Part shown: piece by piece, positions 220 to 15,367 of the stretch | Numbering within the stretch: the first letter of the stretch is position 1 | Layout of the letters: the number at the start of each line of letters is the position of its first letter | Origin: a virus | Lineage: Duplodnaviria; Caudoviricetes | IMG/VR virus record: IMGVR_UViG_3300025018_000091 | Strand: one strand, 5' to 3' | Length of the DNA stretch: 64,000 nt | Made by a program: the position numbers and the translations under genes | The notes under the pieces: generated by a model | The model's input: the letters and a program-made list of their open reading frames with translations, nothing else | Databases searched by the model: none | What the model was told of the DNA's origin: nothing

Positions 220-231
220 GCTAACACCCTT

Positions 232-252
232 GCCCCGGTTACTCGATGGGGC
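232..252. repeat. GCCCC-N11-GGGGC hairpin repeat, copy 1 of 15
   Basis: GCCCC GGTTACTCGAT GGGGC preceded by TT. Confidence 0.9.
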
Positions 253-560
253 GACGACTCCATGAATTAATTAACAGTAATGTAACCCCATTTTCGCATA
301 GTTTGCTTTCGTCTCTTCAACCGTGCTTTTATGCAATTGTTCGATTGCTTCAGGAACCTTAGTCAAAAGGAAAAAAACCTTTCTAGTTCATGCGGCTCAA
401 AACAATCTCCCAATTGCACCGATGCACGTTCAATGTAATGAGCAATTTCTGCCTCATCTGTGCAAAGACCACAAGTATGTCCCTCTATGGTATAGTTCTT
501 ATCACATTCACAATCAACACAGATAGGTGCATTCATGATTTTTCTCCTTTAAAAGATTGA

Positions 561-696
561 GAGAGTGTAGCTAGACCTTGCTCACAGCCAAACATAGGAA
601 TATTAAATTCCTTTGGAATAGCCATTTCCAATCAAACCGCTAAGGAGGAACACACATTATTCGCGGCTATATAGGTATATAGCGTCAAACACTCTC
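561..696 (-). ncRNA. putative structured ncRNA directly 3' of a tRNA-like element
   Basis: Closing inverted repeat GAGAGTGT (561-568)/ACACTCTC (689-696) encloses hairpins GCTATAT-AGGT-ATATAGC, TTGGAAT..TTCCAA and AGGAAT..ATTCCT; no credible ORF. Confidence 0.35.
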
Positions 697-697
697 G

Positions 698-779
698 GAC
701 GATAAAACAGGAATCGAACCTGTTTTCTATTCCGTTCAGCTTATGCCTCGGAATCGTCATACCAATAGACTATTATCGT
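698..779 (-). ncRNA. tRNA-like element with enlarged anticodon loop
   Basis: ACGATAA/TTATCGT acceptor, TA-GTC-TATTGGTAT-GAC D-arm, ATTCC/GGAAT stem with 16-nt loop, AACAGG-TTCGATT-CCTGTT T-arm. Confidence 0.6.
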
Positions 780-793
780 ACAGTACATTTACT

Positions 794-884
794 TGGTGCA
801 TACTGAGGAGTTGAACCTCAACCTGCATAATTCCAATAGCCATGGCTATTTTTGTAGAACCAGGCGCCGCCCACGACGAATGCA
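794..884 (-). ncRNA. tRNA-like element with extended anticodon arm
   Basis: TGCATTC/GTATGCA acceptor followed by CCA, TGAGG-TTCAACT-CCTCA T-arm, internal AATAGC-CATG-GCTATT hairpin. Confidence 0.45.
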
Positions 885-1222
885 TATCCACGTTTTTATT
901 AAGCAAGAAACGTGGAAAACTCCGAGGCAGATCTTTTTGCCCAAAAGATTGGCTCACACAAGAAAAAGGGCTTTCTTGATGTACCTCAAGAAATCGCTAG
1001 AAAGGGCTATAGACTTACACCAAATCTCATTTACTACCCTTTGATTATCCATATGGTGCATCACTGCCGAATAGTAAACCGCTTGGCGCACGCGCCTAGA
1101 TAAAAAAAGTATCTAAGCAAGTTAGTGAATCTATGGATCAATACCTGCTTACACAGTAAACATTTCTTAGATTCCCCATAGACATCTCGTAACTGCGATT
1201 TTCACTAACTTACTAGTCTCTA

Positions 1223-1546
1223 CTAGAAATGCCCACAATATCCAAATCCATCGGACTTGTAGGTTTTTTCCTCAATCTTAGGGAAACCATCCTCATACAT
1301 CTCTGTAGCAGATTCCCCAAACACATGCTTCCATATCTCTCCATCCTTCACCCCAAGATAGAAAACATGCGATGCGTTATGCCCAACAACATAGAAGTCA
1401 ATGCCTTGCTGCTGACATGATCGAGGCTCCAAACTCTGAATATACTCCAGATGAAGCTCAATCACAGATGCCAATAGCTCATCACCCTTGGCAAACTTCA
1501 TAGCAAGCTTTTGTCGCTTCTGATAAATATCTTTCGGCTTCGACAT
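1223..1546 (-). CDS. hypothetical protein
   Basis: 107-aa ORF, co-directional and packed with neighbours. Confidence 0.6.
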   Translation of the reverse strand: MSKPKDIYQKRQKLAMKFAKGDELLASVIELHLEYIQSLEPRSCQQQGIDFYVVGHNASHVFYLGVKDGEIWKHVFGESATEMYEDGFPKIEEKTYKSDGFGYCGHF

Positions 1547-1883
1547 GTGTTCGTGCTTTCTTGATTGGTCGCCGGTTTGGAACCGGTTTGTTACACCAAC
1601 GCTTGAAATCCTTACCCATATGCTTCTTTTTCGCTCGGATAAGAATCATTGCTTCAACCAATGGGAGATCCCCTCGTACTTGATTGCAAGCAAAGTGAGA
1701 AGGAGCTAGATTAGAACTTCCACACCCACCCTTGGAACGTAGAATCAAATGCTCCCTCGTGATCGATTCCATGTTGTCGAATGGTTCCCCGCACAATATA
1801 CACAAGCCATCCCATTTGTATAGTATTGTGCGGTATCCTTCATAAGGATCAAACTCTTTCTGTTGTTTCTCTGCACTACGCAT
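1482..1883 (-). CDS. HNH endonuclease
   Basis: CILCGEPF...TREHLILRSKGG..SNLAPSHFACNQVRGD matches the CxxC...H...N..H..CN HNH pattern; start moved to MRSAEK. Confidence 0.8.
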   Translation of the reverse strand: MRSAEKQQKEFDPYEGYRTILYKWDGLCILCGEPFDNMESITREHLILRSKGGCGSSNLAPSHFACNQVRGDLPLVEAMILIRAKKKHMGKDFKRWCNKPVPNRRPIKKARTHVEAERYLSEATKACYEVCQG

Positions 1884-2160
1884 GAGCACGTCGATCCTTG
1901 ATCGGATTCTCCGAATCATAAGGATATCCAATCGACTCCAAGTATTCCAAATACTCAGGAGCAGGCTCACCAAGGAAATATGTCGAACCACTCAATGTTT
2001 TGATGATTCGACCATTCACTTCCACAATCGGGCTTGTGATTACTGGACGAGGATCGTCATCACGATACCCCACCAAACAAACCGGATTGATCTCAGGTGC
2101 CAAGAATAGATCGTCTGACCTATATGACACTCCCCACTTCTCCAGCTGATATTCACCCAT
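1876..2160 (-). CDS. hypothetical phage protein
   Basis: 94-aa ORF with ITSPIVEVNGRIIKTLSGSTYFLGEP segment; abuts neighbours. Confidence 0.7.
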   Translation of the reverse strand: MGEYQLEKWGVSYRSDDLFLAPEINPVCLVGYRDDDPRPVITSPIVEVNGRIIKTLSGSTYFLGEPAPEYLEYLESIGYPYDSENPIKDRRAHA

Positions 2161-2350
2161 GTTCGCACCTCATTGCAATTGCTTCCGCAACGGAAGGCTC
2201 GGGTTCTGTGTGAATTGTTTCGTCGCTCCAAAGGTACATTCCAGTAGTCAACATCAATTGACCCCTTTCATCTACCTCAATTTCGTACTCATTGTAATGA
2301 ATACGAACAAGAAGCTCCCGATCAAAATCGGATATGTTCTCGATCTTCAT
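2153..2350 (-). CDS. hypothetical protein
   Basis: Fills gap between coupled ORFs; start MKIENISD. Confidence 0.5.
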   Translation of the reverse strand: MKIENISDFDRELLVRIHYNEYEIEVDERGQLMLTTGMYLWSDETIHTEPEPSVAEAIAMRCEHG

Positions 2351-2534
2351 CTTGTTCCTCGGGATGCATGTAGAAGTAATCATCCGTGGCATCTACCCTC
2401 GAACGAAACTCCTCATAAATCCCCGCTTGAATCAGTTGAACACGCAAAAGTTCCCATGCCTTACCAGATATCCCATATCCTTCAGGATCCATTAGCAAGG
2501 CTTCTGTCAACTCCCTCAACTCATTCTTGTTCAT
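2322..2534 (-). CDS. hypothetical protein
   Basis: 70-aa acidic ORF, 4-nt overlap with upstream ORF. Confidence 0.65.
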   Translation of the reverse strand: MNKNELRELTEALLMDPEGYGISGKAWELLRVQLIQAGIYEEFRSRVDATDDYFYMHPEEQDEDREHIRF

Positions 2535-2785
2535 TTGCGAACGTACCTTTCCAGATGACCAATCAAAACATCATCCTCCATGTAAAAAAGGTCATCCTCT
2601 ACCGGAAGTGCATTCTCCAATAATTGACCAAGACGAAGATTCGGCTTGCTCAACCACGCTACCATTATCCGCTGAATAATGGCTTTCTTATCTTCAGCCG
2701 TTTCCGCGCGTCCCTTCATTTCAATCCTCCCGCGATTAACGCGCTGCGTAATTACTTCTTGGAGAATAGAGCTAGATATGTCCAA
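2531..2785 (-). CDS. hypothetical protein
   Basis: 84-aa ORF with WLSKPNLRLGQLLENAL segment. Confidence 0.65.
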   Translation of the reverse strand: MDISSSILQEVITQRVNRGRIEMKGRAETAEDKKAIIQRIMVAWLSKPNLRLGQLLENALPVEDDLFYMEDDVLIGHLERYVRK

Positions 2786-2951
2786 CCAACCGAACCTCCA
2801 AAATTCAGGAAGAACGTAACCGCTCCAAACATTACTCGGTCAGGATCATACAACATCATGTATATGCTGCTAAATACAGCCAAATAACATATTGCCGCAA
2901 ATATGCTATATAATATCCTCATTCATTCCTCCAATCATTTTAGATTGTACT

Positions 2952-3026
2952 TGGGCGCACCGATACGATTCGAACGTATCAACTTCCCCAAAACAATTAG
3001 GGGCTTTACCATTAAGCTAGGCGCGC
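2952..3026 (-). tRNA. non-canonical or degenerate tRNA (anticodon ambiguous, possibly UGU)
   Basis: GCGCGCC/GGTGCGC acceptor plus encoded CCA, GCTT-AATGGTA-AAGC D-arm, GATACG-TTCGAAT-CGTATC T-arm; anticodon loop ATTGTTT lacks purine 37. Confidence 0.6.
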
Positions 3027-3088
3027 TTGGTCCTGAAAGTAACAGGTCCCTTATCTAACTTTCTTGTTCGTCCAGATATGCTTTTGAA

Positions 3089-3496
3089 TCAGGCGAATCG
3101 ACCGTGAGAATCACGCGTCTGACGAGACGCACGTAGACTCAATGCCTGCTTCGTATTGCCAGAAGTCTTCTGTGCCTTCTTGGTCGAAACCTTTCGCGCC
3201 ACCTTCTTGGTCGAAACCTTCCGAGTCACCTTCTTGGGCGCCTGTACCTTGACGTACTTGGGCAGAAGGATCATTTCGACAATCTGCTTGCCGAAATTCA
3301 CCACCTTAGCTTTGGACTTCCCACTCGCATACAACCTGACACTGATACTCGGAGAATCATCTGTGTCAAAGTTGACATCGACTTCCCCTGCATACCGAGA
3401 CCAAACCTTTGCCGACACAACCTTGGAATCCAAGACATGCTGCGTATGCTTGTATCCACAGTCGGATTCTGCCACAACCGTATTCCACTTTGTCAT
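3089..3496 (-). CDS. hypothetical protein with Lys-rich repetitive tail; tandem paralog of 3544-3792
   Basis: Shares SDCGYK..QHVL....SAKVWS.Y.GEV...FDTDDSPSIS..LYASGK; tail KKVTRKVSTKKVARKVSTKK. Confidence 0.8.
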   Translation of the reverse strand: MTKWNTVVAESDCGYKHTQHVLDSKVVSAKVWSRYAGEVDVNFDTDDSPSISVRLYASGKSKAKVVNFGKQIVEMILLPKYVKVQAPKKVTRKVSTKKVARKVSTKKAQKTSGNTKQALSLRASRQTRDSHGRFA

Positions 3497-3543
3497 GTTT
3501 TCTCTCCTGCTAAAACCTTAGTTATTGGACCTTCAGACCCGAT

Positions 3544-3792
3544 TCACAGATACTTGGGCGCGAAATGTCGCTCGACAATCTCCTTGCCCATTTCCACCAT
3601 CTCTTCCTTGGTCTTCCCACTCGCATACAGCTTTCCACTGATGCTCGGAGAATCATCCGTGTCGAAAGAGAAGTGAACCTCTCCACTGTAATCAGACCAA
3701 ACCTTGGCGGAAACCTTGTCTCCTTCCAAGACATGCTGATCAACCTTGTATCCACAATCACTTCTACCTTCAACCAAATTCCAGCTTGCCAT
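3544..3792 (-). CDS. hypothetical protein; tandem paralog of 3089-3496
   Basis: Near-colinear similarity with 3089-3496 over about 80 aa. Confidence 0.8.
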   Translation of the reverse strand: MASWNLVEGRSDCGYKVDQHVLEGDKVSAKVWSDYSGEVHFSFDTDDSPSISGKLYASGKTKEEMVEMGKEIVERHFAPKYL

Positions 3793-3850
3793 GTGTGTAC
3801 CTCCTAGTTATGAATTCTCAAGTTTACACATTACACTCATCCATCATGGA

Positions 3851-4387
3851 TTATTCGTAATGCGGTCGCGGCGTTCGTTCGCCCGGATGTTCCTCAACTA
3901 CAATCATGATATCTATACCACCAAGCACAGAATAGATGTTTCCTTCTCGTCGCTCACCATAGATCGATTCCAAATGAGCCTTGAACGTTTCCACCTGTGA
4001 TTGATCAACCGCTTCCAAGTGGTATCCCCACTTGCACAACTCGTACTTCTCTCCAGTCTCATGGTAAACTACACCCTCACGAGCACAAGAACAATTATGA
4101 CAATAGTCCTTATGCCCCTCAACCGAAATTGCCTTGACCGGAATGGATGCAATCGGCTCGTGATGATTGAACCACCAACCACCCTCCTCCGGTCCACCAT
4201 AATGACGAGTCACCTCATAAGCATTCACATACAACAATGCCTCAGAACCAGGCTTCACGTAATCATCTGGTGGACATTCACATTCACCATCCTCATCAGG
4301 AATTGCTCCACAACAAGAACAACCATGATAGTATGATGCCAATCCTTGATCCAAATCGCCCTGTTCGTCGTAACATTGATTACACAT
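3851..4387 (-). CDS. Cys-rich hypothetical phage protein
   Basis: CNQC, CSCC, CHNC clusters and YGGPEEGGWW motif; GGAG RBS and hairpin repeat upstream. Confidence 0.75.
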   Translation of the reverse strand: MCNQCYDEQGDLDQGLASYYHGCSCCGAIPDEDGECECPPDDYVKPGSEALLYVNAYEVTRHYGGPEEGGWWFNHHEPIASIPVKAISVEGHKDYCHNCSCAREGVVYHETGEKYELCKWGYHLEAVDQSQVETFKAHLESIYGERREGNIYSVLGGIDIMIVVEEHPGERTPRPHYE

Positions 4388-4430
4388 GATTGACTCTCCA
4401 ATCCGTTATCGTTGCTGTACCTACTACCTT

Positions 4431-4451
4431 GCCCCCCTCACTCGATGGGGC
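4431..4451. repeat. GCCCC-N11-GGGGC hairpin repeat
   Basis: GCCCC CCTCACTCGAT GGGGC, 44 nt upstream of ATG 4387. Confidence 0.9.
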
Positions 4452-4456
4452 ACGGC

Positions 4457-4762
4457 TCAGTAGCCCTGACTCCATGACTTTCCAGCTTCCAGCCATACAC
4501 TCATAACCGCTTCCTTTGCTTCCTTCAGTGCAAGACCAGTAAGCTCACGCACAGCCTTAATCTGCGCAATCTTATCATTAGGATTGTTCAAACATACAAC
4601 CATTAAAGCCCTGACTTCAGGCAATGCAATCAGCTTTGACACATTGGCTTTGACTTCAAGAGCTTCCTCAGCTACGTTCAACTCCGAACGCAAACGCCCT
4701 TTGTCCATCGACAACGCTTCAATTCTATCAAGCAGTTTCTCAACAACGTCTTCTTCGTACAT
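4457..4762 (-). CDS. coiled-coil plus ribosomal protein bL12 (L7/L12) C-terminal-domain-like protein
   Basis: NDKIAQIKAVRELTGLALKEAKEAV matches the bL12 CTD signature K(I/V)..IK.VR..TGLGLKEAK..V; start MYEEDVV. Confidence 0.75.
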   Translation of the reverse strand: MYEEDVVEKLLDRIEALSMDKGRLRSELNVAEEALEVKANVSKLIALPEVRALMVVCLNNPNDKIAQIKAVRELTGLALKEAKEAVMSVWLEAGKSWSQGY

Positions 4763-4766
4763 GTGT

Positions 4767-5147
4767 TTATCCCTCGAAAAGTTTGATTTCTCGTACTTCG
4801 AACTTGTAAGTCCTATCGTGGTTTGACCATTCGCTTGCGGCTTGTTTGGCTTGATGTACCGAATCGTATACAGCCAGACCATTACCTTGGTATTTTGACG
4901 CAACTCGAATAACTAAACCATCCTTTGGATCAATCACAAGTACACCATACACCGGATCCTTTCCCATATGGAAGATTTGCTTATTGGTACTTGTCTGAAT
5001 AGGTGCATCTTCATCTCTCAGATTCTGACGAATCGACTTACGATACGATTCATCATCCTCCGGCAAACCAAGACCTTGATACCGAGAAATACCTTGCGAT
5101 TCCCCATACTTATCAAGTTCCTTACCTGTCAATGAATTGAGATCCAT
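4767..5147 (-). CDS. hypothetical protein
   Basis: 126-aa ORF in tight operon. Confidence 0.65.
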   Translation of the reverse strand: MDLNSLTGKELDKYGESQGISRYQGLGLPEDDESYRKSIRQNLRDEDAPIQTSTNKQIFHMGKDPVYGVLVIDPKDGLVIRVASKYQGNGLAVYDSVHQAKQAASEWSNHDRTYKFEVREIKLFEG

Positions 5148-5158
5148 GTGTTTGTCCT

Positions 5159-5524
5159 TTAGCCAGTATACATGATTGAAGCATCACTCATCGCTTGCGC
5201 AAATGAGTATGGTTTCCATGCAGATGATTCTGACCACATTCGTCGATAGGACCATTCTCCATCAGATGTGACTCGATAGATCGTATCGAAGAACTTTTCG
5301 AAATTGTCCGAAATGGTAACGGAACCATCATCCTGCTCTTCAATGAAAAGCAAGTCATCCACGAATGACTTATCATCAGGTTCATTCCAAACTTGACGCG
5401 CATTCTTTTTGACCGCTTCCGAAAACTCTTGTACTTGCTTGTTCATTGGTTTTTCTCCCAATTTCAGAAACTTGCTCACGAGCACGCCGCTGCAATGCTT
5501 CATGAACTTCTTGCCATGAACCAT
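5159..5524 (-). CDS. hypothetical protein
   Basis: 121-aa ORF in tight operon (alternative start 5446). Confidence 0.6.
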   Translation of the reverse strand: MVHGKKFMKHCSGVLVSKFLKLGEKPMNKQVQEFSEAVKKNARQVWNEPDDKSFVDDLLFIEEQDDGSVTISDNFEKFFDTIYRVTSDGEWSYRRMWSESSAWKPYSFAQAMSDASIMYTG

Positions 5525-5560
5525 GTTTTAAGACATACTCATATTCCATGCCGCCTCCTA

Positions 5561-5944
5561 TTAGATGGGTTGAATCTCTTCTCGGGCTTCCAGCTTACGC
5601 ACGTACTCCTTCTGCTCTTCAAAGGTGAGCTTTGATAGCTCATCCATGAATGTTCCAATACGTTCGTAAACCATGCCTTGCTCCAATTCCCATGGAGTTG
5701 TCATGTTCTCAGCAGCACAGAAGGCAAAACCCTCTCCATCAGGATCATCATTCATGTTCTTGATGGTCTGCTGAACGGACTTGTACGCCATCTCAGACGC
5801 AACTTCATGCAATCGATCATTGAAGTCCGTTTCCTCATCCACTTGACCAGTGTTACCACAATGATAACAGGCGTCTTGAACCATACGCCCATCCTCTTCA
5901 TAGTATTCCCAACCAGTCCCACCACACCTTAAACACTCACACAT
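5561..5944 (-). CDS. DnaJ-type CxxCxGxG zinc-finger protein
   Basis: CLRCGGTG...CYHCGNTGQV. Confidence 0.7.
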   Translation of the reverse strand: MCECLRCGGTGWEYYEEDGRMVQDACYHCGNTGQVDEETDFNDRLHEVASEMAYKSVQQTIKNMNDDPDGEGFAFCAAENMTTPWELEQGMVYERIGTFMDELSKLTFEEQKEYVRKLEAREEIQPI

Positions 5945-5975
5945 GATAATTTTCCCTTTTAGAGAAAAGTGAATG

Positions 5976-6173
5976 TTACTTTCTCTCTTCTCGCTCTTGA
6001 ACAAGAAGCGAAATTAGCTTTTGACGCGCAGCGTCAGATAAAGCCACTTGAAAGCCACCATTGAATGTCAATAGAACGCCCTTGTCCTTGTCATTCGACT
6101 CATTCAAAAGAACCCACATCTGTGAGCCTCCATAACATTCAATGAGATTCTCTCTACTTGGCTTTTTCCACAT
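5976..6173 (-). CDS. hypothetical protein
   Basis: 65-aa ORF, co-directional. Confidence 0.5.
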   Translation of the reverse strand: MWKKPSRENLIECYGGSQMWVLLNESNDKDKGVLLTFNGGFQVALSDAARQKLISLLVQEREERK

Positions 6174-6244
6174 GTCTCTTACCCTTTTAGAAGCGTTGCA
6201 AACTGGGAATGTTAAGACCGAATTGATCTAATCCTGTGAAGCAG

Positions 6245-6316
6245 TGGGTCCAGAGGGACTTGAACCCTCAACTCTCGGGTTAAAAGCCCGTTACTCTACC
6301 ATTGAGTTATGAACCC
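6245..6316 (-). tRNA. tRNA-Lys(UUU)
   Basis: GGGTTCA-TA-ACTC-AATGGTA-GAGT-A-ACGGG-CT-TTT-AA-CCCGA-GAGTT-GAGGG-TTCAAGT-CCCTC-TGGACCC-A canonical cloverleaf; CCA not encoded. Confidence 0.95.
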
Positions 6317-6507
6317 ATGCGGCTAAACCGCAACCGATCAAGCATATCAACCAATTCATATGGTCGAAAGTCTTTCAAGTCTATCCAACCACGTCTCTCT
6401 GATTCTTCTGGTATTGGACCAGAAAGAAGTTCATCTAACTCCTCATCAGTTGGATAGATAAAATTATCCTCAAGAATATTGCGTAATTGTCCCTTTCTAG
6501 TATTCAT
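6307..6507 (-). CDS. hypothetical protein
   Basis: Start MNTRKG; coupled to upstream ORF; 10-nt overlap with the tRNA 5' end. Confidence 0.5.
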   Translation of the reverse strand: MNTRKGQLRNILEDNFIYPTDEELDELLSGPIPEESERRGWIDLKDFRPYELVDMLDRLRFSRMGS

Positions 6508-6952
6508 TGTCGTAACGAGTTTCCATGTATTCCATGTAACGCTCGTCTTCATTCCAATGCTCGTAAGGGCGCATCATTCTTGTACCCAAATCCGAAAGCA
6601 ATTCCTCAATCACTTCAATTCTATCGTGATCGATTCGAGCTTTCTTATTCACCTCTTCGTAGAAGTCATCAATCGCCTTCTGACGAATGGCAGATAGTTC
6701 TTCCTTGGTGATATTCGGATTCTTCTCCTCAGCTTCACACTCAGCGTCATATGCCAAGTCTTGTGCTTGCTCAGCAAGATAATCCGCTTCGTCATGCCTC
6801 TCATCATCAGAGACCCATGACTTCTGCTCAATCTTCTGATGATATTCATTCCACTCAGAAGCGAGCTTGGACACCATCTCACGACGAATCGTACTTTTGA
6901 GAGTTTCCTCCCCAGTCTCGTCATACTCACCATCCATTACGAATCCACGCAT
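6497..6952 (-). CDS. acidic helical hypothetical protein
   Basis: Start moved to MRGFVM because the longer ORF overlaps the tRNA-like element at 6979-7068. Confidence 0.7.
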   Translation of the reverse strand: MRGFVMDGEYDETGEETLKSTIRREMVSKLASEWNEYHQKIEQKSWVSDDERHDEADYLAEQAQDLAYDAECEAEEKNPNITKEELSAIRQKAIDDFYEEVNKKARIDHDRIEVIEELLSDLGTRMMRPYEHWNEDERYMEYMETRYDNEY

Positions 6953-6978
6953 GACTTTTCTCTTGTTAGAGAATAGAT

Positions 6979-7068
6979 TGGTAGCAGAGGTTGGATTCGA
7001 ACCAACATAATAATACGTCCTCGGATCCAAGGATATGTGCCACCAGATCCAACCTGGTTAACTCTGCT
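6979..7068 (-). ncRNA. tRNA-like element with enlarged anticodon arm and encoded CCA
   Basis: Perfect AGCAGAG/CTCTGCT acceptor, A discriminator, CCA, GTTGG-TTCGAAT-CCAAC T-arm, ACCAG-GTTGGAT-CTGGT D-arm, TCCT-TGGATCCG-AGGA apex; 90 nt. Confidence 0.7.
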
Positions 7069-7079
7069 AAATAAGGACA

Positions 7080-7134
7080 GTTTTAGAACTTACCCCAGGT
7101 TCAAAGGTAGTTTTGGAACTTACCCTCAAGGTTC
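7080..7134. repeat. GTTTTAGAACTTACCCCAGGTTC repeat, two tandem copies (third at 10949-10971)
   Basis: 7080-7102 identical to 10949-10971; 7110-7134 is a variant. Confidence 0.8.
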
Positions 7135-7294
7135 AAGATTAAGTCCATGACATATAGATACAAATATGACCAAAAAATTAGGACGCTATTACTAAACGTA
7201 TCCATACAACCGTCCTACATGTATGGCGTTATGACGAATCTGTTTGAAGGGCTAAGGGCAGAGTCGATTCACTTCTGCCCCATAACCCTATGAT

Positions 7295-8109: not shown

Positions 8110-8117
8110 AGGCATCC

Positions 8118-8324: not shown

Positions 8325-8427
8325 GCGCTCGCCGAAAGCCAAAAAACCCATATCCCCAAAAGTCCAGAATTAGAGAGAATCTGGAACCCCTGGAAGGATA
8401 GAGGGGATGGGTAAATGCGGGCGGGGT

Positions 8428-8459
8428 AAAATTCCGCTCCCACTGGACGTGGGAGCGGA
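8428..8459 (-). terminator. probable intrinsic terminator
   Basis: 11-bp stem TCCGCTCCCAC/GTGGGAGCGGA then ATTTT on the minus strand. Confidence 0.55.
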
Positions 8460-8508
8460 TGCACAGAACGTGCTCTGAAAGCAGACATGGGGAATGAATG
8501 CTAAAAAC

Positions 8509-8703
8509 TTAGCTGATATGCAGCGTGTGAATCATTCGGCGCAATTGAATTCGTTCCATTCGCGCACGTCGAGCTTCACCGATTCCCCTTTCCTCGCACA
8601 AGGCTAGGAATTGGAACCCTCGTTCAGCTTCAATGCGCTCCCGACGTGCAGATTCACTCATTGATGAGAATGCAGAACCCCTTTCAGAAGTTTTCGAATC
8701 CAT
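8509..8703 (-). CDS. hypothetical protein
   Basis: 64-aa ORF with GGAG upstream. Confidence 0.5.
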   Translation of the reverse strand: MDSKTSERGSAFSSMSESARRERIEAERGFQFLALCEERGIGEARRARMERIQLRRMIHTLHIS

Positions 8704-8716
8704 CTGAATGGCTCCT

Positions 8717-9055
8717 TCAGATCATGGTCTTGAGTCGGAAAGCGTCAGCCCACAAGGCTTGCGTATCAGGATATGCACGATACCGCGAGCGACCGATTCT
8801 TTCGATGATTCCCTCATCTACCAACTTCTTGAGAGCGCCTCGAATGTCGCCCACTGAATAGAGCGAACCCAAACGCTTGTTCAAGTGTTCGGTCAAGTCA
8901 GAATCTTCCACGCCTTCATCGAATCGGCAAACTCCCCGAACGACCAAGGCACAACGATGCGCCATTCCATGGACAATTGTCGTTCGATCCGGTTCTGCGT
9001 AGACTTTGGTATCGTGTGTGTTGTAGGTTGTTTTCCTGCGAAACCTCATGTGCAT
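8717..9055 (-). CDS. winged helix-turn-helix DNA-binding protein
   Basis: SVGDIRGALKKLVDEGIIERIGRSRYRA fits a wHTH recognition helix plus wing. Confidence 0.7.
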   Translation of the reverse strand: MHMRFRRKTTYNTHDTKVYAEPDRTTIVHGMAHRCALVVRGVCRFDEGVEDSDLTEHLNKRLGSLYSVGDIRGALKKLVDEGIIERIGRSRYRAYPDTQALWADAFRLKTMI

Positions 9056-9086
9056 TCTCCTTGTTTCGAGTCAAGCTCTTTGGATG

Positions 9087-9503
9087 TTACAGTCTTGGCG
9101 TATACAAGAGCACGTTACTGCCCTCGTAAAACTCCTTCGCCTCTTTCAAACTACTACCCGTCAATTCGCGAACCTTCTTGATTGCGTTGATTCGATTGTC
9201 TGGAAACTCCTCTTTCAGAATCTGACGAATCTGATGATAAGAGGAATATCGCCTTTCGGAATAATCCCTCCCCATTACGAATAGACGCATGATCTCATTC
9301 TCCACTTGAGGCGAAAGATCCGGGGGAGAAAACGAATTCTTTTGCACAGGAGGAATCTTCGCGGTTTTCTTGAAGATCTCCAATTCCTGTTCAAGCTTCT
9401 TCAGATCATCCGTGGCAATAATCAGAGCACAATTCAAGGATGTATTCTCACGAATGAGATCATCCAAGTAAGACAATGGTACAGAAACTTTCACATCTTT
9501 CAT
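9087..9503 (-). CDS. coiled-coil plus bL12 CTD-like protein (second copy)
   Basis: DNRINAIKKVRELTGSSLKEAKEFYE. Confidence 0.75.
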   Translation of the reverse strand: MKDVKVSVPLSYLDDLIRENTSLNCALIIATDDLKKLEQELEIFKKTAKIPPVQKNSFSPPDLSPQVENEIMRLFVMGRDYSERRYSSYHQIRQILKEEFPDNRINAIKKVRELTGSSLKEAKEFYEGSNVLLYTPRL

Positions 9504-9644
9504 TCAATCCTCCCATCCATGACTTTTGTACTTCAATCTCGTAGGTGGAACCCGTCCATAGATCCATTCGTAGACTATTGCTAGACATACCAATGGACCT
9601 ATGACGAATATTGTGAGGAGAAGGTCAATTCTCTTGATCGTCAT
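9504..9644 (-). CDS. small membrane protein
   Basis: MTIKRIDLLLTIFVIGPLVCLAIVYEWIY single hydrophobic segment. Confidence 0.45.
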   Translation of the reverse strand: MTIKRIDLLLTIFVIGPLVCLAIVYEWIYGRVPPTRLKYKSHGWED

Positions 9645-9819
9645 GCTCTCCCCAATCTTCCTCCATCCATTCGTTCTTGTTCCTGGGCGCCTTGTACTTC
9701 TTGGAATTGATCCTTGCCCCTCTGAGAGCTTCCCCCTTCGCTTGAAGGATTGCAAGCGTATTGCGTTCACGCTTGCGGGGGATCGTCAGGGTGAAGTGGA
9801 TTCCCTTTTTGCTTCCCAT
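9625..9819 (-). CDS. small basic protein
   Basis: MGSKKGIHFTLTIPRKRERN..., fills gap in operon. Confidence 0.45.
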   Translation of the reverse strand: MGSKKGIHFTLTIPRKRERNTLAILQAKGEALRGARINSKKYKAPRNKNEWMEEDWGEHDDQEN

Positions 9820-9958
9820 TGTCTTCCTCATAGTGGGTCAGATTCTTATTGATCTTATTCCCACAATCTGAACAGGTGTATCCGTAATCTGTTTTGACCA
9901 TACGCCTCATGCTATCACACACAAGGCAATATGGTCGCCAATCAGGTGAATGTGTCAC
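9767..9958 (-). CDS. zinc-ribbon protein
   Basis: CLVC...CSDCGNKI. Confidence 0.6.
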   Translation of the reverse strand: MTHSPDWRPYCLVCDSMRRMVKTDYGYTCSDCGNKINKNLTHYEEDNGKQKGNPLHPDDPPQA

Positions 9959-9963
9959 GGGGT

Positions 9964-10149
9964 TTAGTTCAAGGTTGTGTTCGGATTCGTAGCTAGTTGC
10001 TTCTGAAGATTCGACATCTTCTCAAGAACCAACTCGTAACACTTCTTGAGCAAGTATGCTGCATCCTCATCCGTGGGAGGAGGAGTAATCGCACCAGTCT
10101 TGACCAGAATGCCAGCAACGATAACAGCAGCAGCCATGAGAGGATCCAT
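9964..10149 (-). CDS. hypothetical protein
   Basis: AACAACGGAG RBS and hairpin repeat 41 nt upstream. Confidence 0.65.
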   Translation of the reverse strand: MDPLMAAAVIVAGILVKTGAITPPPTDEDAAYLLKKCYELVLEKMSNLQKQLATNPNTTLN

Positions 10150-10189
10150 CGTTTTCTCCGTTGTTTGTTTGCGTTACACACATTGGTTT

Positions 10190-10210
10190 GCCCCGCTCAC
10201 TCGATGGGGC
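10190..10210. repeat. GCCCC-N11-GGGGC hairpin repeat
   Basis: GCCCC GCTCACTCGAT GGGGC. Confidence 0.9.
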
Positions 10211-10282
10211 ATCGTTATACAGTCTCAGCGGAACTCGTATGATGGCACACGGAATGCAACGTGCAAACGGTGTACCACTCAG

Positions 10283-10357
10283 AGGAATGGTCAGGAATCG
10301 AACCTGCGTTGCCACTTACTCCCCCAATCCTATCACAGATCGAGGAATATCCATTCC
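10283..10357 (-). ncRNA. tRNA-like element lacking a recognisable D-arm
   Basis: GGAATGG/CCATTCC acceptor, GCAGG-TTCGATT-CCTGA T-arm, one long internal stem TTCCTC..GGGGGA. Confidence 0.4.
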
Positions 10358-10375
10358 CGCCCTAGGGCTTAAGCT

Positions 10376-10579
10376 TCACTTCACAGATACAACCACACCG
10401 TCCTTAACTGTGACTGTGGCATACCACTTGTGTGGTTCGGGATAATGTGGACCTTCCACATATTCCGTCCCATTGTCCTTGGGCGTCCCAATACCGGGAG
10501 AATACAACCGCACTTGTTCTCCATTCTTGACCGCTTCCTTGAGAGCCCTTTTGGACTTGAAGTTTTTGGTGGTATACAT
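10376..10579 (-). CDS. small conserved-looking hypothetical phage protein
   Basis: NFKSKRALKEAV...VEGPHYPEPHKWYATVTVKDG. Confidence 0.75.
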   Translation of the reverse strand: MYTTKNFKSKRALKEAVKNGEQVRLYSPGIGTPKDNGTEYVEGPHYPEPHKWYATVTVKDGVVVSVK

Positions 10580-10583
10580 ATGG

Positions 10584-10790
10584 TCATTCTTCTCCGCAGC
10601 CGTAGTTGTAGCTTACTCCGTTGGGGCGAGAGATCAATCCCTCTTGCTCCAATGCCTTTTCGAGACGTGCCTTCTTGGAATTGAGAGCGCGCAATTGTCG
10701 CTTGGCATTGCGGATTGCATTCAACTCCCGTCGAATGGCACGAATCTCTTTTTTGGTATCGCTAATCTGTCCGTAAACTTCGCTCCACAT
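10584..10790 (-). CDS. coiled-coil hypothetical protein
   Basis: GGAGG RBS before MWSEV; heptad-like KKEIRAIRRELNAIR. Confidence 0.6.
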   Translation of the reverse strand: MWSEVYGQISDTKKEIRAIRRELNAIRNAKRQLRALNSKKARLEKALEQEGLISRPNGVSYNYGCGEE

Positions 10791-10840
10791 GTTCCGTTCC
10801 TCCATGTTTTGGGTGCATTCAAGGTTGCACCTAACCCGGC

Positions 10841-10905
10841 AGCCATGTGCAGGAGTCGAACCTACCTTACGCAACTTCCGTATAGCCGATCCTTGCTATA
10901 TGGAG
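10841..10905 (-). ncRNA. degenerate minimal tRNA-like element
   Basis: GTAGG-TTCGACT-CCTGC T-arm, TAGC-AAGGATCG-GCTA and TACG-GAAGTTG-CGTA hairpins, weak acceptor. Confidence 0.3.
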
Positions 10906-10996
10906 TTAACGTACGCTTGTCACCATCGACACAAGGCATAATAGGGCAGTTTTAGAACTTACCCCAGGTTCCATCCCACTCACCACCCAGAAAGTC

Positions 10997-11356
10997 TTAC
11001 TTCTTCTCGGGCACGTCCCGCAGACGCACCACACCGCCACCCTTTCCCTTCGAAACCTTGAATTCGTTGTTGGTTCGAATCCACAGACCCACCGCCTTCT
11101 GGGTCTCGACGAATTCGGAGGGACCGATTCCCATCAGACCACACGCTGCGGAACAGATGTGGGGCATGGGAAGGGTTGCGCCAAGGTGCGCATCGAACAC
11201 GGCGTGAACCGCTTCCGAGATTGCACCCAAGGATTCGGCTTCCTTCTGAGCCAATTCCAGCAATTGGTCCTCGACCTCGAAAAGCGTCGCTTGGACATTG
11301 ATGGAGCCATCGTCGTTGCGGACACAAGTGCTGCTGAGATTGCTGATCTTTTCCAT
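10997..11356 (-). CDS. paralog of 7295-7678
   Basis: CVRNDDGSI...EAVHAVFD...FKVSKGKGGGVVRL. Confidence 0.7.
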   Translation of the reverse strand: MEKISNLSSTCVRNDDGSINVQATLFEVEDQLLELAQKEAESLGAISEAVHAVFDAHLGATLPMPHICSAACGLMGIGPSEFVETQKAVGLWIRTNNEFKVSKGKGGGVVRLRDVPEKK

Positions 11357-11443
11357 GGCTTTTCTCCTTACACGTACAGTGGGGCAGTTTATTGACATTG
11401 TACCCCAGGTCGTTATTGTTTCGCTCGTTACATTGACTGGCTT

Positions 11444-11464
11444 GCCCCGGTCACCTGATGGGGC
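11444..11464. repeat. GCCCC-N11-GGGGC hairpin repeat
   Basis: GCCCC GGTCACCTGAT GGGGC. Confidence 0.9.
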
Positions 11465-11470
11465 AAGCTC

Positions 11471-12070
11471 TCATCCGTGAGAGAACGTTGACTTGCTTTG
11501 CTTCGCCTTGACACCGAATCCCAACTTCGATTGTCCAGGCTTGTTGGTCTTGTGAATCGCCATACGAGCAGGCTTCAGAATACGAGCAAGGGAATCGTCG
11601 CGATTCACGAATTCGTAATGAACCCCACGGTGAAACACTTCCCCGAAACAATCCGAGGATTGCTCGAACAAGCGCCGATCACACCACTCGCTCGCACGTT
11701 GGGGAAGGTCGAAGTTTTGCTTGACTTCCTTGCCCTTTTCGTCCAGAAGGATGTTTCCAGACCCGTCGCGAATGACGGCGGAAAAAGGCTTCTTGGACTG
11801 TGAAGGCTTCGATGCATTCTCGATTGACTCTTTCGCCTTCAAGAGATCCACGAGCATGATATGCCCCATGACCGCTTGTTTCAATTCAGTCAATGCGGGA
11901 GTCGGCATGACTTCCCCGGCGTCCACCTTTTGAAGGATTGGAGCCGTGACGTAGGAGACTTCACTGGTCAGAAGATACTCCCGATAAGCTTCGAAGAAAG
12001 CGATGGCGGAAACCTTCGCGCTATTCGCCTTCTGCAACAGACCTTTCGGTCCCATCTTGCGCTCAGCCAT
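11471..12070 (-). CDS. hypothetical protein
   Basis: 199-aa ORF, AACAACGGAG RBS, flanked on both sides by hairpin repeats. Confidence 0.8.
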   Translation of the reverse strand: MAERKMGPKGLLQKANSAKVSAIAFFEAYREYLLTSEVSYVTAPILQKVDAGEVMPTPALTELKQAVMGHIMLVDLLKAKESIENASKPSQSKKPFSAVIRDGSGNILLDEKGKEVKQNFDLPQRASEWCDRRLFEQSSDCFGEVFHRGVHYEFVNRDDSLARILKPARMAIHKTNKPGQSKLGFGVKAKQSKSTFSHG

Positions 12071-12109
12071 TGTTCTACTCCGTTGTTCGTTCGTTGTACC
12101 GCTTGGGTT

Positions 12110-12130
12110 GCCCCGGTCACCTGATGGGGC
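12110..12130. repeat. GCCCC-N11-GGGGC hairpin repeat
   Basis: GCCCC GGTCACCTGAT GGGGC, 40 nt upstream of ATG 12070. Confidence 0.9.
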
Positions 12131-12135
12131 AGGTC

Positions 12136-12318
12136 CTACTTGCTGCCGAACAGCATTCCGGTGATCATCACCATGGCGCTAGCGCCAACCGATCCCCAGA
12201 ATGAGATTCCGTTATGCAAGTATTGTGCCACTTGAGGAAACTGTGGCACAAGAAAGAAGTTTACCGCACAGAAGATGCAAGCCGCCAACATAACCCACAT
12301 GACAAGTAGCTTCCACAT
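12136..12318 (-). CDS. small two-TM membrane protein
   Basis: MWKLLVMWVMLAACIFCAVNFFLV...FWGSVGASAMVMITGMLF; AACAACGGAG RBS. Confidence 0.7.
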   Translation of the reverse strand: MWKLLVMWVMLAACIFCAVNFFLVPQFPQVAQYLHNGISFWGSVGASAMVMITGMLFGSK

Positions 12319-12357
12319 TGTGTTGTCTCCGTTGTTGTTCGCTACACCCATTGTCTT

Positions 12358-12494
12358 GCCCCGGTCACCTGATGGGGCAGCCCGTTCCGTTGACGGTGGA
12401 ATCGCTGTCGTTCCGTTCGCAGCAGAATCGCTGTTGTTCGCTGCGTGCTGTCCGTCGTAACGTTGCCTACCTTGCCCCGGTCACCTGATGGGGC
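12358..12494. repeat. two hairpin repeats (12358, 12474)
   Basis: Both GCCCC GGTCACCTGAT GGGGC. Confidence 0.9.
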
Positions 12495-12524
12495 TCGTGA
12501 CGAACGCGCGTCGCGCGTAGGGGA

Positions 12525-12794
12525 TTGGCACGCTTGCATATTGCGAGAATCATGCCAAACCCGTTTGACTATATGTTGCCTTATATATAATGTATGGTCA
12601 TTGAAAGTTGGCACGCTTGCAGATTGCAACGGGCATGCCAAGTCATATATTCCATATTTTATGGTTTTCCTTGGTTTTAGAGGTATGGCAAGTTCGGGCG
12701 GTATAAACTTTATTCCATGTTTTATGCAAACTTGGAATCGTCAAGGGAAGCGGTCATGTTGGCATGTTCGTCGCACCTTGCAAACCGCATGCCA
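12525..12794. promoter_or_regulatory. cluster of sigma54-type motifs (duplicate of the 8174-8324 module)
   Basis: 12525-12557 identical to 8174-8206; - TGGCAT-GCCCG-TTGCA (from 12640); opposed pair 12760-12794. Confidence 0.65.
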
Positions 12795-13136
12795 TATCCG
12801 GTAAAAAGACACGCGAAAACCCGGCACTCCTCCCCGAAGGGATAGAGCGCCAGGCTTCGCAACTTCAGTTCACATCGTTCACATCGTTCACTTACTTTTT
12901 TTATCGACTTATACATTTAATTCTACGCGGGCTCAACCCGTTCGCACAGTTTTCGCCACATTGACTCATAATCTGCTCTTTTCTCAGGGTTAGAGAACCT
13001 GCGGTATGGTCGTGTGATGCGCCAACGCACGAGCTTAGCGACTTGCCGATGGCTCATACCATCGGTGCGATGAGAGAATTGGCAAGCCTCAGAAGGTTCT
13101 TAGGCGTTGCCCCCTTCAGCTTGCCAACAGTCAGAT

Positions 13137-13490
13137 TCACAGGAACCAACCTTCCAACTTGCGCTCCAACGCAAGATTGTTCAATGCCTCGGTTGTGCGG
13201 AGAAGAGACTTCTTCTCCGCTGTGTACTCTTCTCCCACCGTGAAGTTGAGACCCTTCATCAGTGCAATATCGACTTCGCGCTGAGTTACCTCTTCGTGGA
13301 CCTGGCGCTCCTCGATCTTGCGCAACAGATCCTTGGCTTCAGTCGCACGTAGCTTTGCACCCAAGAGAACGTCTTGGGCTTTCTCGAATGCCTTGCGGGC
13401 GTTATCCGCAGACACACGAGCCAACTTCTCATCTTCGACGGCTTCGACACAAGCCGCCTTCAACCCTTCAAGTGTCGCCTTGAGTTGCAT
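13137..13490 (-). CDS. coiled-coil hypothetical protein
   Basis: GGAG RBS; helical A/E/K-rich sequence. Confidence 0.7.
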   Translation of the reverse strand: MQLKATLEGLKAACVEAVEDEKLARVSADNARKAFEKAQDVLLGAKLRATEAKDLLRKIEERQVHEEVTQREVDIALMKGLNFTVGEEYTAEKKSLLRTTEALNNLALERKLEGWFL

Positions 13491-13776
13491 ATCGTTTCTC
13501 CGTTTCATGCACACTGGTTTGCCCGGTCTTGAGAACCAAGGCAGAGAGAAACTCCCTGCCCGTAATCAAGCCTTCGAGGTATTGATCAACCTCAAAGTGT
13601 CCCGCATAATGCAGGACAGCCCGTTCGACATGAGGCTTGAGAATCTCAGCCTCAGTCTTATAATAGAGGGAGTGCGGGTCGCACTTATCCCAGGAAGGAG
13701 TTTCCCTAATCAGAGTCAAAGCGGCTTCCGACGCCTTGATCCGAGCCTCCTCCAGAATACCAGCCAATGAACCCAT
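13468..13776 (-). CDS. hypothetical protein
   Basis: AACAACGGAGG RBS before MGSLAG; hairpin repeat 31 nt upstream. Confidence 0.6.
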   Translation of the reverse strand: MGSLAGILEEARIKASEAALTLIRETPSWDKCDPHSLYYKTEAEILKPHVERAVLHYAGHFEVDQYLEGLITGREFLSALVLKTGQTSVHETEKRYATQGDT

Positions 13777-13806
13777 TGTCTTTCCTCCGTTGTTGACCAC
13801 TATCTT

Positions 13807-14073
13807 GCCCCAGTTACTCGATGGGGCGATTTTACAGTCAGAACAGAAACCCAACAATTGCGTGGGCAGTCAGCCAGCAAAAGGCTAGCGTGACTCCCAC
13901 GCCTAAAACAACACCCAAAGGCGATTCAGACTCAGACATCATTGCACCTTTCACATACCGGCTTGCCCCAGTTACTCGATGGGGCAAACTCATTCCGTCC
14001 GCAGCGTAACCATCATCGTCTCCGCTGCGTCGCATCGAACACAACCTACCTTGCCCCGCTTACTTGATGGGGC
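13807..14073. repeat. three hairpin repeats (13807, 13965, 14053)
   Basis: Loops AGTTACTCGAT (twice) and GCTTACTTGAT. Confidence 0.9.
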
Positions 14074-14183
14074 GCGACACGCTTTTATGGGCGGTCTGTT
14101 GTTGGCTTAACTCTTGCTCCTTGCAATTAGCATGCCATGATGGGTGCGGGCGATTTGGGGCATCGCCGCGCGCCCATCTTGGC

Positions 14184-14305
14184 ACGGCACGTTTGCACAT
14201 TGCGACGACCATGCCACATGCACAGGACAGCACAATTATTGTGTGAGCGTATTATTGTGTGAGTGGAATGACTTGGCACGCTTGCTTATTGCAAGACACG
14301 CGCCA
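14184..14305 (-). promoter_or_regulatory. two sigma54-type motifs
   Basis: - TGGCAT-GGTCG-TCGCA (from 14216) and TGGCGC-GTGTC-TTGCA (from 14305), each within a 33-bp quasi-palindrome. Confidence 0.6.
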
Positions 14306-14321
14306 ACAGGACGACAGACGC

Positions 14322-14352
14322 AAAAAAAATCCGCTTCCCGGTGGGAAGCGGA
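14322..14352 (-). terminator. intrinsic terminator
   Basis: TCCGCTTCCC/GGGAAGCGGA stem then a T run, 30 nt after the stop of 14382-15296. Confidence 0.85.
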
Positions 14353-14381
14353 CGAAGGGGCGGAACCCGCCCCTGCTGTTG

Positions 14382-15296
14382 TTATTCCAGGTATTCCAGG
14401 ATTTCCGTCGTGTCGTCGGCGGCAGATTCCGCCAAGAGGCGAGCAAGCTCAGCCTCCCGATCCGCCTCAGACACATTCGCCAACGGAGCGGATTCAACCG
14501 GGGCGGAATTCTTCTCGGCTTCGTTCGCCAGCGCCTTGCGGCACCGCGCACGCCGCTCGTCCATCGTGGACGGATCCAGTGTGAGCGGGCGAAACGTTTC
14601 GCCCGGCTCGTTGACTGGCACACCGCTTGCATTGACTTCCGCGCCACCGAACGTTCCGTTATGGAACGCAATGACCGTTTCCGTCGTAAGCTCGCTGTTT
14701 CCAGCGTCACGGTAACGACGCGCAAGCGCGCCGACATCGCAGGATTCCACCTCGGACAGAATCTGCTCTGCGAGGTACAGCTTGACCGACGCCATCGCCC
14801 GCTCCGTGATCGCCATCTCTGCCAGCAATTCCTTTTCTTCCATGTTTCCCGCCAAGTGAGACTTGCGTTCCAGTGTCGCTGCAAGTTTTCCGTGCTCGTC
14901 GGATTCCTCCACCATGGCACTGGCTCGTGCAATTCCCGAGCCAATCATCTTGCGAATCTCATGATCCGCACCAGCCGCACCTGGCACGAATCCTGCAACG
15001 CCAGCGTAGCGCTCACCGCGCCACACCACGAATCCGCTGGCATCGGATCCGGTGTTGCCCTTGATAGGGGCGGTTCCGCTGGGGGCGGAAACGGTCGCCG
15101 TGGGCGTTGCAGTGGGGGCGGACTTCGCGGACTTCGCGGCTTTCGCAGATTCCTTGGCTGCCCGCTTGGCAGCCTTTTCCGCCGCTTTCGCGGCTTTCGC
15201 GGCTTCCGCGGCTTCCAGGTTCTCATCGTGTTGCGCCATATGCTTGGCTTGCGCAGCGAGCATTGCGTTCAGGGCGGAAAGGGCGACGTTCGACAT
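14382..15296 (-). CDS. hypothetical protein with Ala/Lys-rich histone-H1-like N-terminal segment
   Basis: AAEAAKAAKAAEKAAKRAAKESAKAAKSAKSAP; hairpin repeat upstream and terminator downstream. Confidence 0.75.
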   Translation of the reverse strand: MSNVALSALNAMLAAQAKHMAQHDENLEAAEAAKAAKAAEKAAKRAAKESAKAAKSAKSAPTATPTATVSAPSGTAPIKGNTGSDASGFVVWRGERYAGVAGFVPGAAGADHEIRKMIGSGIARASAMVEESDEHGKLAATLERKSHLAGNMEEKELLAEMAITERAMASVKLYLAEQILSEVESCDVGALARRYRDAGNSELTTETVIAFHNGTFGGAEVNASGVPVNEPGETFRPLTLDPSTMDERRARCRKALANEAEKNSAPVESAPLANVSEADREAELARLLAESAADDTTEILEYLE

Positions 15297-15346
15297 GTTT
15301 TTTTCTTTCGGCTGGGAGAAAAAATTTTTGGTGTACTAGCTGGCTT

Positions 15347-15367
15347 ACCCCCCTTACTTGATGGGGC
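15347..15367. repeat. hairpin repeat, copy 15 (variant)
   Basis: ACCCC CCTTACTTGAT GGGGC, 51 nt upstream of ATG 15296. Confidence 0.8.

Follow-up and report, generated by a model that had tools for sequence, protein, structure and literature searches.

A repeated element with a conserved CCCAT core, probably a phage-specific promoter, in the GC-rich arm of a huge-phage genome

The repeated element and the genes it precedes

The IMG/VR virus record IMGVR_UViG_3300025018_000091 (Duplodnaviria; Caudoviricetes) was analysed over a stretch of 64,000 nucleotides (nt), called here the window, which is part of an AT-rich phage genome of 444 kb from groundwater. Up to ~15.9 kb the window consists of a GC-rich arm, where minus-strand genes are preceded by a short repeated element that reads GCCCC-ATC(A/G)(A/G)GT(G/A)A(C/G)N-GGGGC-AAG on the gene strand and can form a hairpin. 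This element is probably a phage-specific promoter with the core CCCAT[C/T], usually followed by AACGG, and the hairpin would be incidental to its working. An initial annotation had placed the emphasis on the hairpin, proposing a hairpin-type promoter, an RNA processing site or a recombination cassette; the observation is real and a promoter is supported, while the emphasis on the hairpin is not.

When the consensus is allowed ≤3 mismatches, exactly 15 matches are found in the window, all on the + strand where 0.01 would be expected, and these recover precisely the positions and the single orientation originally listed. The strict stem pattern GCCCC-N11-GGGGC has 11 matches (0.02 expected), and the core CCCATC-N4-RAC also has 11, all on the minus strand between 238 and 13983 (0.47 expected). 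All copies lie between genes, run in the same direction as the minus-strand genes and point into the next gene. The statement that copies are absent past 15.4 kb is correct within the window; confinement to this interval does not hold, as an additional copy lies ~4.3 kb before the window start on an identical contig that extends the window leftwards. Of the degenerate copy proposed near 13521, the CCCCATC half is missing and only the downstream half (GGGC-AAACCAGTGTG) is present. An Rfam scan of 1-16.5 kb returned tRNAs only, with no family at the motif, and a search of the literature for descriptions of the motif found none.

Following the direction of transcription, the first copy of the arm (GCCCCATCAAGTAAGGGGGGT; 15347-15367, on the minus strand like all the others) serves a gene for a protein of 304 amino acids (aa) at 15296-14382. 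The copy at 14053-14073 is followed by a 67-nt unit free of open reading frames (ORFs) and then by the copy at 13965-13985, which serves a hydrophobic ORF of 33-34 aa (start at 13942 or 13939, end at 13838) with the ribosome-binding site AAAGGTG, and the copy at 13807-13827 serves the gene 13776-13468 (102 aa), with the ribosome-binding site GGAGG. Similarly, the copy at 12474-12494 is followed by a 95-nt ORF-free unit and then by the copy at 12358-12378, which serves the gene 12318-12136 (60 aa, N-terminus MWKLLV). Further along are copies at 12110-12130, ahead of a conserved 199-aa gene (12070-11471), at 11444-11464, ahead of the gene 11356-10997 (119 aa, ribosome-binding site AAGGAG), and at 10190-10210, ahead of the gene 10149-9964 (61 aa). 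Four copies then form an ORF-free tandem array with spacings of 97, 121 and 90 nt, namely 8089-8109, 7992-8012 (a GTCCC variant), 7871-7891 (an ACCCC variant, in which the outer stem pair is broken) and 7781-7801, the last of which serves the gene 7681-7295 (128 aa, ribosome-binding site GGGAGG). The copy at 4431-4451 serves the gene 4387-3851 (178 aa, phrog_30656). The copy at 232-252 has its ATG at 219, 30 nt after CCATC, and the gene encodes 303 aa on the extending contig; the unusually short gap noted for this copy is correct, its end being 12-13 nt ahead of the ATG. Leaders ending in AACAACGGAG-N5-7-ATG, described for several copies, are genuine at 10190, 12110, 12358 and 13807.

Conservation of the core and of the hairpin

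The 199-aa protein, used as the query that found the clade, has homologues on contigs of 350-510 kb. Homologous-arm neighbourhoods were taken from JGI contigs and IMG/VR, where viral contigs were reached by alignment query and not by single-protein queries. A motif scan of metagenome contigs gave 13 loci with the same element ahead of orthologous genes, and the arms of the relatives have the same layout, in which GC content rises abruptly at the start, the genes are small and lie on one strand, and a dense repeat stands ahead of most of them. The exact motif of the window was not found in the viral-contig collection, and megablast and tblastn searches against a phage collection gave no match. 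A single match in a genome of the Gammaproteobacteria (L014) stands outside any motif context and is probably due to chance.

In 43 aligned copies from close relatives, positions 0-23 are nearly invariant, followed by CAG at 25-27 and G-Y-R-T-A at 31-35. The element had been described as a stem and its loop, and conservation in fact extends past the stem, with AAG, CAG and G-Y-R-T-A at fixed distances ≤15 nt downstream. There is no conservation upstream of the motif, where information is ~0 from -60 to -2 in four sets of 43, 25, 37 and 81 aligned copies, and the determinants therefore lie inside the motif.

In eight other lineages the orthologous arms contain 15-83 copies each, always on the gene strand and in a version particular to the lineage. 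These include aaTCCATCGACCAACGG (25 copies in 18 kb), gCTCCCATTCACGG (22-43 per 20 kb in three genomes), CCCATCGCCAAACGG, CCCATCATGAAAC, tCCCATC-NNNT-AACGG, TTCCCAGCGACTAAG and CCTAGCGACTAAC. The core common to the lineages is CCCAT[C/T], usually with AACGG 4 nt later, which takes the form CCCATC-RRGT-RAC-N-GGGG in the window; two lineages deviate from CCCAT[C/T], with CCCAG or CCTAG, and are represented by L025-L027, whose records are 28% complete or short. In a complete relative of 447,763 bp, CCCATC-N4-AACGG occurs 83 times in the forward and 0 times in the reverse orientation, with 0 matches in a reversed-pattern control, and the copies run from 433.6 kb, every 250-400 bp, through the record end, thinning by 76 kb. 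In a second complete relative, of 480,838 bp, CTCCCATTCA occurs 60 times forward and 0 times reverse, starting at 419,979. Both complete relatives show a sharp boundary at the start of the block and copies that thin over 90-190 kb. This strand bias over whole genomes, together with the sharp start, indicates that the motif labels a single long block of genes running in one direction from a sharp head, which in the window is at ~15.4-15.9 kb.

The hairpin behaves differently from the core. In the lineage of the window the copies have a mean folding energy of -11.5 kcal/mol, as opposed to -6.6 kcal/mol for shuffles, and 41 of the 44 copies still form five pairs, in one of two registers, so that the stem is a real local feature, though not a conserved signal. 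The homologous motifs of five other lineages have folding energies equal to those of shuffles, and the 5-bp stem can be formed only in the lineage of the window. Because the stem is missing from the other lineages that carry the homologous motif, the hairpin is not a conserved feature, and the appealing reading of it as the signal is corrected to that of a lineage-specific addition.

The element as a putative promoter and its alternatives

Several observations bear on whether the element acts at the level of DNA or RNA. Strong intrinsic terminators occur inside the blocks with a motif and gene within the next 12-90 nt, as at 14353-14329 in the window or at 6873-6894 in the related locus L034, where the motif follows at 6906, and transcription must therefore restart at or near the motif. 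The ORF-free tandem copies 90-121 nt apart (7781-8109, and also in relatives) fit better with stacked promoters than with processing sites. Sites resembling those of sigma-70 are not in excess, neither in the arm of the window (1-16.5 kb; 19 found and 21.3 expected, none at the copies) nor in that of a relative (37 found and 36.7 expected). The promoter part of the initial annotation is thus supported, while its N4-like, hairpin-type part is not, as the stem is missing in other lineages, the loop has 11 nt and not 3, and complete relatives have no T7-family polymerase.

The position of the start codons bears on where such a promoter would initiate. A sharp peak of start codons is found exactly 30 nt beyond the first C of the core (+30). 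In an AT-rich lineage 33 of 81 copies have an ATG at +30, which in 32 cases is in frame with a long ORF, and five seemingly earlier starts have an in-frame ATG at 30 or 31; in the CCCATTCA lineage 21 of 100 copies have the +30 start codon and 3 more have it at 31 nt. Two cases are found in the lineage of the window (copy 232 included) and three in L019. In the CCCATTCA lineage GGAG, GAGG or AGGA lies between motif and ATG, at normal spacing, in 79% of the +30 copies as opposed to 9% of the copies with a gene further away, and a ribosome-binding site also lies before +30 in six CCCATTCA-lineage copies with start codons at +33 to +36 and in two copies of L019. Since ribosome-binding sites lie between the motif and the ATG, the mRNA would begin inside or just after the motif. 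In -10 elements of the sigma-70 family the spacing from the -11 A to +1 is 11 nt, and the same distance separates the invariant A of CCCAT from a conserved G downstream (A5 to G16 in the window). From this agreement in geometry, the start is placed at the G run, and the conserved G run (plus-strand copy start + 4) is most likely the start site, with 13-16 conserved bases preceding the conserved GG. For the copy at 15347 this predicts a start at G 15351, with an alternative at 15334.

Two other promoter architectures were considered and rejected. A MotA-box-like activator site with a sigma-70 -10 element was suggested by an apparent TAATAT box in the AT-rich lineage; it was rejected because this box is in fact TAAT plus the start codon, and all but one of the 33 ATGs concerned (32) are in frame with a long ORF. 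An ECF-type arrangement, with AAC at -35 and GYRTA at -10, would place start codons upstream of the implied start site.

With regard to the enzyme, a search limited to the Pfam polymerase families gave no match to PF00940, PF00562 or PF00623 in the two complete relatives; for PF00940, the T7-family polymerase, there was no match at E ≤ 1, with phage T7 as a control giving E = 1e-109. In four relatives, two of them complete, no T7-type polymerase, beta, beta', sigma-54 or sigma-54 activator was found. What is present, in three of these four relatives and in two further partial genomes, is one sigma-70-family protein of 209 aa with regions 2 and 4, with 73-83% identity among the members of the clade; a copy with 80% identity to the query is found on a contig of 444,127 bp, which matches the genome of the window in length and is taken to be it. 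In L031-L033 the motif block does not include the sigma gene, which has the same orientation, lies 50-76 kb upstream of the block's head and is not preceded by a CCCAT motif. The regions upstream of this gene in these three genomes have in common the stretch GTATCAATA...GTATA...TTACTTT; GTATCAATA was considered as another promoter class and dropped, not being enriched genome-wide (12 as opposed to 6 in the control). A conserved sigma factor and a conserved CCCAT core are compatible, and transcription is most likely carried out by host core RNA polymerase under the direction of a phage factor, for which the only candidate found is the 209-aa protein.

The best reading of the type of element, judged from sequence, would therefore be a promoter of the -10 type without a -35 element, used by host core polymerase with a phage factor. 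In this scheme, host core polymerase would be redirected by the phage factor to the -35-less element, and transcripts would begin with the G run that follows the invariant A by 11 nt. One copy of the element stands ahead of most genes, and of a few ORF-free leaders, of a one-directional block that starts abruptly at ~15.9 kb and runs leftwards. The block may be expressed early.

Such a scheme has precedents. The late promoters of phage T4 (TATAAATA) depend on the phage sigma gp55 together with host core polymerase and have no -35 element, and phiEco32 has gp36-dependent promoters. The element would resemble the T4 late type in its short conserved element at the -10 position, the lack of a -35 element, its many copies and the phage sigma with host core proposed here. 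It is unlike that type in its unrelated sequence, CCCATC-N4-AACGG, which is longer, bipartite and reaches the start site, and in serving a one-directional block of small genes of unknown function instead of late structural genes; compared with gp55, the sigma of the clade has regions 2 and 4. The heat-shock promoters of sigma-32 (RpoH) have the -10 element CCCCATNT, to which the window core GCCCCATC is similar in its C run plus AT in the -10 position, with the invariant A 11 nt upstream of G; unlike them, the element has no CTTGAA-type -35 13-15 bp upstream, where the four aligned sets are uninformative. The phage sigma scores against RpoH models no better than against other sigma families. 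A sigma-54 promoter has a GG/GC pair 12 positions apart (TGGCAC-N5-TTGC), a spacing that is not in the motif itself, although separate sites with the true consensus are nearby.

In T4-type phages, PeSL cassettes consist of a stem-loop, a promoter, a ribosome-binding site and a start codon before small variable genes, and their promoters are of the sigma-70 type (TTGACA-N17-TATAAT and variants) (PMC2839356, PMC4122927). The likeness to PeSL cassettes that had been suggested extends to this layout, since about half of the window copies have TTCCG-N7-CGGAA just upstream, and a ribosome-binding site and ATG follow downstream, ahead of small genes. It does not extend to the promoter, as there are no sigma-70 boxes at the copies, and indel breakpoints are not enriched. 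Taken together, the element fails the defining features of the N4, T7-family, RNase III, sigma-32, sigma-54 and sigma-70 types.

A number of points weigh against a -10-type promoter used with the phage sigma. A bipartite core of 15 nt with TAACGG at the proposed start is atypical of a -10 element of the sigma-70 family. The retention of the stem in 41 of 44 copies points to some local selection, which is left unexplained. The sigma gene could serve late genes instead, and if a phage sigma is needed, the motif genes are not immediate-early. Moreover, Y32/R33 is invariant in the lineage of the window (43 of 43 copies), and most +30 ATGs of the AT-rich lineage have no ribosome-binding site. These last two points would both fit leaderless mRNAs that begin 17 nt further downstream, a site therefore retained as an alternative, and the start is to this extent ambiguous. 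As a general reading the leaderless start was dropped, since the CCCATTCA lineage has ribosome-binding sites before the ATG, and it is an alternative for the AT-rich lineage only.

A more radical proposal, which is doubtful, is that the element belongs to an undescribed transcription system of a large clade of huge phages, with a non-standard factor (a new polymerase or sigma capture), in which transcripts would start 30 nt after CCCATC and ~40% of the genes in AT-rich lineages would be leaderless. If this were true, the parallel gradient of GC content and promoter density described below would reflect an ordered early programme linked to entry of the genome.

An element acting in RNA is unlikely. 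Here, a few upstream promoters, for example of the sigma-54 type, would produce a polycistronic RNA, and CCCAUC...AACGG, with the local stem, would be the site at which an endonuclease or RNA-binding protein cuts or stabilises this RNA just upstream of each gene. The strict strand specificity and the place upstream of ribosome-binding sites fit this equally well, sigma-54-type sites 49-86 nt upstream of six copies could supply the transcripts, and the stem of the window's lineage is stable as RNA and kept in most copies. However, the strong terminators that directly precede a motif and gene require a restart, and in the AT-rich lineage 83 motif copies are accompanied by only 3-4 sigma-54-like sites and no excess of sigma-70-like sites. 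The stem is missing in all other lineages, and processing sites would not readily account for the ORF-free tandem copies. RNase III acts on duplexes of about two turns, and pairing in the motif is limited to 5 bp, without the imperfect duplex of ~20 bp or longer of a T7-type RNase III site, so that the stem would be no substrate. The RNA processing site put forward initially is not supported by these results.

It is distinctly unlikely that a phage-encoded or virion-carried polymerase that went undetected reads an extruded GCCCC/GGGGC hairpin, as in N4, or the 15-bp core as another non-canonical promoter. Novel polymerases such as the N4 virion RNA polymerase and the crAss-like enzyme escape Pfam models, and a polymerase of a novel type could do so here. 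The G+C stem with conserved unpaired bases, a sequence-conserved loop far above chance, lies upstream of early-looking genes at a block edge, which is like N4. The contiguous consensus of ~15-17 bp, which may end at an initiating GG and has many copies per genome, would resemble the promoters of single-subunit polymerases, and each lineage has its own version, as in T7, T3 and SP6. Unlike the T7 family, no T7-family polymerase gene was found in the two complete relatives by the Pfam search, in which the T7 control worked, and the block is punctuated by intrinsic terminators of the bacterial type. N4 has only three promoters, with a stem of 5-7 bp and a 3-nt loop centred at -11 and with conservation from -17 to +1, and these require a virion polymerase of 3500 aa as well as host single-stranded DNA-binding protein (SSB) and gyrase (PMC4496689). 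All 15 copies of the window have instead a 5-bp stem with an 11-nt loop, and copies number 15-83 per lineage. As the hairpin is required in an N4-type promoter, it should persist in relatives that keep the promoter, and in the eight sister lineages the stem is not kept.

A recombination cassette, in which the repeat mainly shuffles small genes by homologous or site-specific exchange as proposed for T4 PeSL, is highly improbable: a related 44-kb contig has one 3-kb indel with an end that coincides exactly with the edge of copy 14053 (14074), copies are homogenised within a genome, consistent with gene conversion, and the 30-nt spacing of motif, ribosome-binding site and ATG is constant, as if whole cassettes moved, but in a comparison of seven related loci homology breakpoints are not enriched near copies (6 of 59, with 5.1 expected; P = 0.40), gene order is largely collinear with relatives, and recombination would at best be a side effect of repeated promoters and not their primary function.

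To our knowledge, nearly all information on huge phages of 350-510 kb comes from metagenomes, and no account exists of how they time their gene expression. A phage-specific promoter with the CCCAT core would provide a sequence marker for one complete temporal or regulatory gene class, usable across the clade without culturing, and the marked class would comprise 60-83 transcription units, mostly unknown small genes, in a one-way block of 90-190 kb. The conserved 209-aa sigma and the CCCATC-N4-AACGG promoter form a concrete candidate pair and, if matched, a possible orthogonal expression part.

Other features of the GC-rich arm

The GC content of the window is 0.45-0.54 up to ~15.9 kb and ~0.30 beyond, giving the arm an abrupt head. 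This junction is not an assembly artefact, because the related 44-kb metagenome contig is collinear across it. A contig of 58.5 kb that is identical to the window over 1-8041 continues leftwards, and its GC content falls gradually to 0.36. Along the direction of transcription, GC content thus jumps from ~0.30 to 0.54 at the arm head and then declines to 0.36 ~25 kb downstream, with motif density dropping in parallel. The same pattern is seen in every relative examined (L017-L019, L024, L028 and L034), including the AT-rich one (0.25 to 0.42). Possible reasons for this gradient are that the first-expressed genes are adapted to the codon usage of the host, or that the silencing of AT-rich DNA is avoided.

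The arm is also rich in sigma-54-type sites. The pattern TGGCAY-N5-TTGC has 29 matches in the window, where 6.3 would be expected, 23 of them within 8118-15859, and several in this interval have the full consensus. The non-coding arm head upstream of the first motif copy (15451-15859) contains TGGCAY-N5-TYGC sites at 15772-15786, 15521-15535 and 15451-15465 on the minus strand and at 15845-15859 on the plus strand, and face-to-face sites form 35-bp palindromes at 8290-8324, 10243-10277, 12760-12794 and 14103-14137. Enrichment is found in GC-rich relatives too (for example, 18 as opposed to 0.07). The strong terminator at 14329-14353 (minus strand), which has an 11-bp stem plus a T run (T7), comes after the first gene of the arm and is itself followed by sigma-54-like sites and by motif copy 14053.

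Stem-loops of the form TTCCG-N7-CGGAA have 10 matches where 0.72 would be expected, and lie 5-7 nt upstream, on the sense strand, of 7 copies. They are located on the minus strand within 7808-8034 (including 7899-7915 and 8018-8034), at 12385-12427 and at 13993-14009, occur also in L019, and may be candidate 3' ends of upstream transcripts, without a U-tract. Between tandem copies there are ORF-free units of 70-100 nt on the minus strand (8013-8093, 13986-14057 and 12379-12478), which have in common with relatives the block GGT(T/G)GTGTTCGATGCGACGCAGC and show 70-80% overall identity. For the units after 8089, 12474 and 14053, a reading as small structured RNAs was rejected, since neither a conserved fold (-1.05 kcal/mol) nor covariation was found; these units may instead be leaders that bind a protein, or give rise to short non-coding transcripts.

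Scattered between the small arm genes are a tRNA-Lys, a tRNA-Thr and two weaker tRNA-like matches (34.6 and 24.8 bits), the four matches lying at 699-778, 2952-3026, 6244-6316 and 6982-7068 on the minus strand. A 138-aa arm protein (9087-9503, minus strand) has a ribosomal L7/L12 C-terminal domain (E = 1.6e-7), and a second copy is called on the extending contig. The first genes past the arm (~16000-20000) have a sense strand that is extremely poor in C, with a GC skew of +0.28, and the first of them (16118-16834, plus strand) encodes a zinc metallopeptidase (HExxH) that looks secreted and that relatives also have across the junction. Further into the AT-rich part, a gene at 28512-29603 on the minus strand encodes a peptide chain release factor of the bacterial type, with PCRF and RF-1 domains.

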